DNA from: a virus
Lineage: Duplodnaviria > Heunggongvirae > Uroviricota > Caudoviricetes
DNA: 6,660 nucleotides
IMG/VR virus record: IMGVR_UViG_2681813226_000005
Reading direction: 5' to 3' (one strand)
Shown: piece by piece, positions 2,237 to 2,926 of the stretch
Position numbering within the stretch: the stretch's first letter is position 1
How the letters are laid out: the number at the start of each line of letters is the position of its first letter
Notes under the pieces: generated by a model
Databases searched by the model: none
What the model was told of the DNA's origin: nothing
The model's input: the letters and a program-made list of their open reading frames with translations, nothing else
Made by a program: the position numbers and the translations under genes

Positions 2237-2336
2237 AGGCTATAAACCAACAACTAAACACTGAAAATTTAAATCAGAAATGATTTTTATTAAATCCTTA
2301 ACCGGAGGGATTCCTGCACCCTCAGAACATCAGGAG

Positions 2337-2354
2337 ACCGCCCGAAAGGGCGGT
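2337..2354 (+). promoter_or_regulatory. RNA hairpin (7-bp GC stem, GAAA loop) between an SD-like CAGGAG and the ATG of the 187-aa ORF
   Basis: ACCGCCC-GAAA-GGGCGGT forms a perfect 7-bp stem. CAGGAG (2331-2336) lies 26 nt from the ATG at 2363 in linear sequence, but about 8 nt if the hairpin forms. Confidence 0.4.
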
Positions 2355-2362
2355 AGTGAAAA

Positions 2363-2926
2363 ATGACTGAATTAACCAAAGAATGGCTACAGAACACGAT
2401 TACCGGAATTGAGTCATCACGGGATGAAATACCGTTCGGACTCGATGAAGATCAAAACAACATGCTTACCGCATTAAAAATTGCACTGGCATCACTGGCA
2501 TCAGTATCGGATGAACGGGCAGCCTATGAATTATTTATGGAGAAGCGTTTCGGGGAATCTGTAGATCGCCGCAGAGCAAAAAATGGCGATAGAGAATACA
2601 TGGCATGGGATATGGCGCTTGGCTGGATTATCTGGTGTCACCGCGCCGCCATGCTTCAGGCTGGAAACTTTCGGGAAAATAAGGGTTCGTCAACCAATAA
2701 TTTTCGGATAATCTCGGAAACGTCAACCAACTCTCCGGCAATCCCTGATGAGGTGTTGTCCGCAATCCTGAAGGTCGCCAGGCTTCGTGCAGATTTCGAT
2801 GCTTCTGAAGTGGACAGGCGAGGTATCGGTAGTTGTCTGGATGAGGCCGAGCAAGAACTTATCGTTACCATTAACGAATACGCCAGTCAGATCGCAGTAG
2901 AAGCGACACAGGGGGAGAACCAATGA
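2363..2926 (+). CDS. Hypothetical protein (187 aa), no recognised family
   Basis: Long ORF on the same strand as all neighbours. It follows a 125-bp AT-rich intergenic region. Its stop overlaps the start of a downstream micro-ORF (ATGA at 2923-2926). Confidence 0.65.
   Translation: MTELTKEWLQNTITGIESSRDEIPFGLDEDQNNMLTALKIALASLASVSDERAAYELFMEKRFGESVDRRRAKNGDREYMAWDMALGWIIWCHRAAMLQAGNFRENKGSSTNNFRIISETSTNSPAIPDEVLSAILKVARLRADFDASEVDRRGIGSCLDEAEQELIVTINEYASQIAVEATQGENQ

Follow-up and report, generated by a model that had tools for sequence, protein, structure and literature searches.

A hairpin between a Shine-Dalgarno-like sequence and a start codon in a lambdoid prophage of Escherichia coli: a candidate structured spacer within a portable cassette

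A perfect hairpin that separates a Shine-Dalgarno (SD)-like sequence from the start codon of a phage gene raises the question of how the ribosome reaches that codon, and whether the hairpin serves translation initiation, restrains it or has another role. The hairpin considered here is found in a stretch of 6,660 nucleotides (hereafter the window) that matches a lambdoid prophage of E. coli O157:H7 EDL933 with 100% identity (NZ_CP008957.1, at ~2.79 Mb). The + strand carries all genes of the region, in the order of a replication-P-like gene, a DUF1627 gene, four small overlapping open reading frames (ORFs), a gap of 126 nt (2237-2362), the gene for a 187-aa hypothetical protein (2363-2926), hokD/sok, a DUF968 gene, rusA, Q and three tRNA genes. 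The operon is tightly packed except for the gap, which holds the hairpin (hereafter hairpin 2).

Several other features of the window were also recorded. The hok/sok type I toxin-antitoxin locus is complete (3215-3389 and 3384-3539), with a sok RNA that matches Rfam family RF01794 at 114.9 bits and a hokD coding sequence (CDS) annotated in RefSeq. The three tRNA genes (6190-6439), which are directly 3' of the Q antiterminator gene, have the anticodons CAT, TCG (Arg) and TCT (Arg); the first is assigned to Met by ARAGORN and to Ile by RefSeq, and the cluster resembles that of Stx-type lambdoid phages. Just after Q, a promoter-like site (TTGCAA-17-TATATT, 5963-5991) is followed on its 3' side by a strong hairpin, AAAACCCGC...GCGGGTTTT (6043-6066), that the scan classified as terminator-like on the - strand. 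The whole segment (5963-6072) looks like a late-promoter leader of the PR'/tR' type, and weak Rfam matches (isrJ, isrK and leader families) overlap it.

The start codon of the downstream gene is well defined. The 187-aa protein (WP_000137954.1), a mosaic accessory protein, is encoded on the + strand at 2363-2926 with an ATG at 2363-2365. Because a TGA at 2357-2359 is in frame with this ATG, the ORF cannot be extended upstream. The RefSeq start of the gene is the same ATG, residue 1 of the protein aligns with position 1 of the PHROG profiles 3323 and 5117, and a reading frame that enters from upstream is ruled out because the spacer between hairpin and ATG is either 7 or 8 nt long among relatives. 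The start at 2363 in the original prediction is thus supported by all four lines of evidence. No Pfam family was found for the 187-aa protein. The DNA from 2375 to 2660 shares 97% identity with the 5' portions of genes that other phages carry under the annotations DUF551, EaA or Ea22, and the C-terminal region of the protein matches another PHROG (14306). A second ORF of 28 codons (2280-2366, MIFIKSLTGGIPAPSEHQETARKGGSEK) spans both hairpins of the gap and overlaps the start at 2363 in an ATGA, but it is probably no gene: its ATG is replaced by ACG or GTG in close relatives and is missing from the other module type described below, and insertions and deletions in the spacer shift its frame. 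It was rejected on the grounds of the non-conserved start and the changes of frame.

Upstream of the ATG, the + strand contains the SD-like CAGGAG (2331-2336, preceded by a T), whose duplex with the anti-SD is predicted at -7.4 kcal/mol; hairpin 2 itself (2337-2354), in which ACCGCCC (2337-2343) and GGGCGGT (2348-2354) form a perfect 7-bp stem capped by a GAAA tetraloop (2344-2347); and an A-rich spacer of 8 nt without an SD (AGTGAAAA, 2355-2362), which includes the in-frame TGA. The original prediction had placed a perfect hairpin at exactly these positions between CAGGAG and ATG, and its arithmetic was right as well: CAGGAG is 26 nt from the ATG, and subtraction of the 18-nt hairpin leaves 8 nt. 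It had also called for a calculation of the folding energy, which gave a predicted -14.1 kcal/mol for hairpin 2 alone and a fully paired stem in a 160-nt context, with an ensemble pairing probability of ~1. Hairpin 2 is the sole perfect 7-bp hairpin with at least six G-C pairs in the whole window. Because dinucleotide shuffles of the window gave at least one comparable hairpin (perfect 7 bp, at least six G-C pairs) in 15% of cases, hairpin 2 by itself does not exceed what chance can produce, whereas its position does, as does its conservation at over 170 further loci.

A G+C-rich stem with a GAAA loop could belong to an intrinsic terminator, to an RNase III site or to the boxB hairpin of an N-utilization (nut) site, and the GCCC-GAAA-GGGC of hairpin 2 resembles boxB of lambda (GCCCU-GAAAA-AGGGC). 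All three identities are, however, highly improbable. No U-run follows hairpin 2 on either strand (the + strand continues with AGUGAAAAAUG and the - strand with CUCCUGAUG), and neither promoter nor terminator scans, run on the window and on one other locus (L004), placed a site within the module to which hairpin 2 belongs. RNase III needs a duplex of ~20 bp, or about two helical turns. The 7-bp stem is far below this length and no longer duplex is predicted around it, so the suggestion of an RNase III site in the original prediction is not supported. A nut site is recognized by a boxA (CGCTCTTA-like) a few nt 5' of a 5-bp stem with a GNRNA pentaloop. Here no boxA lies within reach, as the nearest matches with one mismatch (at 379, 3601 and 6208) are at chance level, and hairpin 2 is found far inside the operon, 8 nt from a start codon and not close to an early promoter. 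An Rfam cmscan of the whole window at E≤1 yielded nothing at 2289-2365, hairpin 2 included. The module was also considered as a promoter plus leader (a 'moron'), a reading without support from the scans, which detected no promoter or terminator motif in it.

Our preferred reading, to which we give a probability of roughly 0.5, is that hairpin 2 serves as the structured spacer in a split ('accommodated') ribosome-binding site. In such a site the SD is more than ~15 nt from the start codon, a stem-loop cuts this distance to ~5-11 nt and no canonical SD is accessible; in the window the two elements are 26 nt apart, the predicted hairpin reduces the distance to 8 nt, and an accessible canonical SD is likewise absent. 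On the rightward early transcript, 2337-2354 would fold into a GAAA-capped stem and bring the SD, (C)AGGAG(G), at the 5' foot of the stem to within ~8 nt of the AUG in space. The 30S subunit would then pair with this SD and reach the start codon without melting the hairpin, which would loop out. Elsewhere in the operon, most annotated genes have an SD-like sequence within 12 nt of the start codon. In phage 1720a-02, a homologue of the downstream gene lacks the cassette; its ATG is 2 nt from an upstream stop codon and has no clear SD, an arrangement that suggests stop-start coupling and is uninformative with regard to the hairpin.

CAGGAG had been described as the only good SD-like element, and this did not hold up. 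The 3' arm of the stem, AGGGCGGUA, pairs with the anti-SD at -7.8 kcal/mol, compared with -7.4 kcal/mol for CAGGAG, albeit with an internal mismatch and locked in the stem. The spacer AGUGAAAA has no SD at a canonical distance, and the 3' arm is the only anti-SD match nearby. This sets a limit on the split-site reading: since the 3' arm (GGGCGGU) is as complementary to the anti-SD as CAGGAG and, at 6-9 nt from the AUG, is equally well placed, spacing alone cannot separate the two SD candidates. The stem could be a negative or regulated element that hides the real SD in its 3' arm or that serves as the operator of an RNA-binding repressor, a regulator-binding stem having been among the alternatives of the original prediction. 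Translation would then be low until the stem opens or the protein is absent, and several genes behind such stems in one prophage would form a small regulon. We regard this as unlikely. Opening of the stem would cost ~17 kcal/mol against the -7.8 kcal/mol gained, GGCGG has a central mismatch to the anti-SD, and the near-invariance of the upstream GGAG, documented below, would be left unexplained; we also know of no candidate protein that binds hairpin 2. By calculation, making the SD and 2355-2378 single-stranded while hairpin 2 stays folded costs 5.9 kcal/mol, whereas exposing the SD-like sequence of the 3' arm costs 16.8 kcal/mol and making all of 2331-2378 single-stranded 21.9 kcal/mol. Given these costs, a ribosome that leaves hairpin 2 folded and uses the upstream SD is predicted to be favoured by 11-16 kcal/mol.

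The original prediction had treated the hairpin as a feature of one accessory gene. Hairpin 2 does precede a gene for an accessory protein, but it is part of a widespread portable cassette that consists of GGAG(G), the hairpin, an A-rich spacer of 5-8 nt and a start codon. In the window, the cassette is included in a portable non-coding module of the + strand (2289-2362) that is common to other prophage loci and comprises AAATCC, hairpin 1, a linker, the SD, hairpin 2 and the spacer. Of 5426 complete E. coli genomes, 2641 have a BLAST match to 2237-2375 of the window (139 nt), at up to eight places per genome and with 4835 copies in all, and most of the matches span only 2289-2361 (positions 53-125 of the query) and lie 5' of differently annotated genes. 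Three pattern scans of IMG/VR collected cassette instances at 174 loci. In an alignment of 71 distinct copies (A2), which has a mean column identity of 87%, the conserved unit runs from the leader through hairpin 1 (GAGGG/CCCTC), a variable linker of ~10 nt and GGAG(G) to hairpin 2. All copies are 87-100% identical.

Searches further afield added little to this distribution. A 15-mer anchor search of 596 Gb of genome contigs gave 120 matches, from which a filter for the adjoining module kept only one (L308); the remaining matches, in unrelated bacteria, look like chance, a 15-mer being too short for 596 Gb. The cassette was not found in the Rac prophage of K-12, and K-12 data sets are thus unusable for its study. 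At 301-345 of one locus (L332), which belongs to phage vB_EcoM-Ro157c2YLVW (Punavirus), a cassette remnant was observed in which GGAG is changed to GGAT. The ORF that follows this remnant is not the annotated gene, as the CDS begins 28 nt further on. The sequence would fit decay of the cassette after gene loss, and it suggests that the cassette has spread to a P1-like phage.

Conservation of the core was computed on 43 distinct core sequences. In these, the Gs of GGAG (G11, G12 and G14) are invariant and the A is at least 90% conserved, with one copy reading GGGG, while the linker beside GGAG varies at several positions. Most copies read CAGGAGG, the last G of which forms a G·U pair at the foot of the stem, and GGAG adjoins the hairpin within 0-1 nt in essentially all copies. 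Within the stem, 94.4% of the cells of the 43 distinct copies are in standard pairs, compared with 29-60% when the partner is slid by 1-3 columns. There are 28 one-sided changes that keep a standard pair (GU, AU, GC and UG variants occur) and 17 unpaired cells, together with a single true double change, from G-C to A-U, in one locus (GCCACCC/GGGTGGT, L133). Changes from C to U in the 5' arm, which keep a U·G pair on the + strand and would give C·A on the - strand, are common variants found in 17 distinct sequences; the mirror-image changes from G to A in the 3' arm, which break the pair, are found in five distinct sequences, all rare. This asymmetry, with C-to-U changes tolerated and G-to-A changes rare, speaks for selection that acts on base pairing in RNA of the + strand.

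Formal covariation was not significant, in that shuffle controls reached the observed values in 249-329 of 500 trials. The test is underpowered because all copies are close relatives: a search of 99 sources (0.9 Mb) with covariance model R1 recovered near-identical copies only, with nothing between 42 and 12 bits. The covariation evidence for the stem is therefore best described as suggestive. It should be noted that the stem is not indispensable, since the copies of one clade have a mid-stem A·C mismatch (GCCACCC/GGGCGGT), to which some members add further breaks. The GAAA loop is retained in ~90% of distinct copies, as might be expected if a repressor recognized it; it is, however, not strict, since the variants GGCA, UAAA and AAAA occur.

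Similarity among the copies stops just 3' of hairpin 2, and six ORF families with unrelated N-termini lie downstream. They are DUF7167 (MRKFK; 60 aa; spacer to start of 6 nt), DUF4014 (MKHYLEK, MTTLFRK or MVTLFRK; 72 aa; 5 nt), mosaic proteins that begin with MTELTK or MAELTK and include the gene of the window (123-277 aa; 7-8 nt), MQEIKE proteins (158-196 aa; 8 nt), a MLTLKH ORF (43 aa; 7 nt) and MEITKE/MGITKE proteins (about 173 aa; 10 nt). Only the last family, with the longest spacer, has an SD of its own (GGAG) in the spacer. The spacers of the other five families, of 5-8 nt, are without one and read AGTGAA, AGTTAA, AAGAA, AATAA, AATGAAAA, ACAGATA and others.

A-rich spacers can allow initiation independent of an SD, a point against the split-site reading. 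The hairpin might have no part in spacing and act on the RNA in another manner, with initiation being SD-independent or relying on weak contacts. It could stabilize the transcript, either by shielding the downstream cistron from 5'-end-dependent RNase E or by protecting the upstream RNA from 3' exonucleases, or it could insulate, keeping the flanking SD and AUG out of long-range structure. A stable GNRA-capped hairpin in the 126-nt gap of a tightly packed operon would suit these roles, as would the A-rich, unstructured spacers and the presence of the unit in many sequence contexts, which is what one expects of an insulator. An element of this kind would nonetheless have no need to adjoin GGAG within 0-1 nt, or to keep 5-8 nt to the AUG before six unrelated genes, and we hold this explanation to be improbable.

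The sharp borders of the module raise a further explanation, namely that the conserved 70-100 bp are a recombination joint without RNA function, providing homology for the exchange of accessory genes among lambdoid phages while the hairpin hitchhikes. Mosaic breakpoints do lie at the 3' end of hairpin 2 and at ~2289, and the copies, 87-100% identical, have no diverged relatives. The strand-asymmetric substitutions point instead to selection on pairing in the + strand RNA, and the genes joined at this place are without an SD of their own, so that the joint must supply one; a joint with no function in the RNA is accordingly rated as quite unlikely. Recombination at the module is nevertheless compatible with a split ribosome-binding site, and the two are not exclusive. 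Under the split-site reading, the SD and the hairpin, usually with a leader of ~45 nt, would constitute a portable translation-initiation cassette that recombination has put before six or more accessory ORFs, unrelated to one another, in prophages of E. coli. Because the junction lies just 3' of the hairpin, each gene would bring its own spacer of 5-8 nt.

On the 5' side, several unrelated sequences precede the cassette among the collected loci, and the GGAGG-hairpin core is also found without hairpin 1, in a context where an unrelated ORF ends with its stop codon 5 nt before the core (...GATTAATGTCAGGAGGCCGCCC...). In four loci (L017, L040, L072 and L078), two cassettes lie ~1 kb apart before different genes, one with the full leader and the other directly after an upstream stop codon. 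Both arrangements would also be in keeping with a stem that hides an SD or binds a repressor: a ribosome that terminates 5 nt before the SD could open the stem, and paired cassettes could place two genes under one control.

Hairpin 1 (2305-2323) is predicted on the + strand from GAGGG (2305-2309), a 9-nt loop and CCCTC (2319-2323). It is kept in the module and is missing from the second upstream context; it is thus not needed for the SD-hairpin core. A UCC at 2295-2297 is predicted, both in the RNAalifold consensus and in the minimum free energy structure in the context of the window, to pair with the GGA of the SD (2333-2335) and to close a loop around hairpin 1. The resulting helix, UCC(U) (2295-2298) with (A)GGA (2332-2335), would have 3-4 bp and cost 2.25 kcal/mol to open for a free SD, and may weakly mask the SD according to the model; its columns are invariant. 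Hairpin 1, likewise conserved and invariant, is enclosed by this helix, and masking of the SD or a guard against pairing of CCCUC with the SD are candidate roles for the two. The leader occurs in two types, one of which reads 'CTGAATAATTAAAT...AATCC', while the window has the other, an AT-rich stretch of different sequence that moves together with the upstream gene. This portion of the gap includes an AT-only hairpin, AAATCA-GAAA-TGATTT followed by TTATT (2271-2291), which might act as a weak terminator or bind a protein; at the corresponding place, the other module type has its own AT-rich inverted repeat (CTGAAT...ATTYAG). The conservation of hairpin 1 and of the AT-rich leader is left unexplained by a split ribosome-binding site.

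Taken together, structure-dependent initiation, as originally proposed, is the best fit to the adjoining GGAG, the wobble-preserving changes in the stem, the 5-8 nt spacers without an SD and the predicted costs of unfolding. From these features we infer that hairpin 2 folds in vivo, that the ribosome uses the upstream GGAG as its SD and that initiation needs the folding. The portability of the cassette, the SD-like sequence in the 3' arm and the upstream UCC able to pair with the SD had escaped the earlier reading. A broader proposal, which we advance only tentatively and consider doubtful, is that the ~30-nt core (GGAGG and the GAAA hairpin) and the ~45-nt leader form a standardized, self-insulated, structure-dependent ribosome-binding site that lambdoid phages would recombine to a place before newly acquired accessory ORFs, and that is also a recombination linker driving mosaicism in this region. 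If so, any ORF joined 5-8 nt 3' of the hairpin would be translated, whatever its sequence, and co-regulation through the common hairpin might be possible.

To our knowledge, proven bridging of an SD and a start codon by a hairpin is essentially limited to two genes of T4. The class of mechanism is therefore already known, and what is new is the lambdoid prophage setting, the unrelated hairpin sequence and the modular, multi-copy distribution before unrelated genes; full-text literature searches with the hairpin sequence, the protein accessions and DUF7167 found no papers. If the split-site reading is correct, the cassette would be an example from temperate phages that is unrelated in sequence to those of T4, occurs in roughly half of all complete E. 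coli genomes and often does so in several copies. Its spacers of 5-8 nt and its stem variants would offer a natural series with which to examine how a structured spacer is accommodated by the 30S subunit, and it would explain the translation of SD-less mosaic accessory genes in Shiga-toxin-type prophages. With regard to annotation, predictors of start codons and ribosome-binding sites that look only 5-15 nt upstream would score these genes as SD-less.

Among known systems, the boxB hairpins of the lambda and P22 nut sites are likewise short G+C-rich stems with GNRA-type loops on the early rightward transcript of lambdoid phages. Hairpin 2 differs from them in having a tetraloop instead of a pentaloop and 7 bp instead of 5, in the lack of a boxA, and in its position between an SD and a start codon, where it is repeated before accessory genes. 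Translational operator hairpins, such as that of the MS2 coat protein, and SD-sequestering stems are similar to hairpin 2 in that a hairpin lies in the ribosome-binding region of a phage gene and could bind a protein or hide an SD; here, in contrast, the SD and the AUG are outside the stem and are predicted to be accessible at low cost.

The closest parallels are the split ribosome-binding sites of T4, reportedly the subject of work by Nivinskas et al. in 1999 and by Malys and Nivinskas in 2009. In T4 gene 38, a stem-loop reduces the SD-AUG distance from 22 to 5 nt, and in gene 25 from 27 to 11 nt; destabilizing mutations in the latter reduce initiation, and its structure was confirmed by mutation, reporter fusions and DMS probing (PMC3014915). 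The element of the window is like these in that the SD is too far from the start codon (22 and 27 nt in T4, 26 nt here) and a stem-loop that lies in between cuts the distance (to 5 and 11 nt in T4, to a predicted 8 nt here). In both cases, moreover, the genes belong to phages and are expressed in E. coli, and close relatives appear to retain the structure. The T4 cases are, however, single loci that are vertically inherited within the T-even phages, and the mechanism of gene 25 has been proven by experiment, whereas the present element is found in temperate lambdoid prophages, is unrelated in sequence to those of T4 and is known from sequence and prediction. Unlike its T4 counterparts, it is also part of a portable cassette that stands before at least six unrelated genes, often in more than one copy per prophage.
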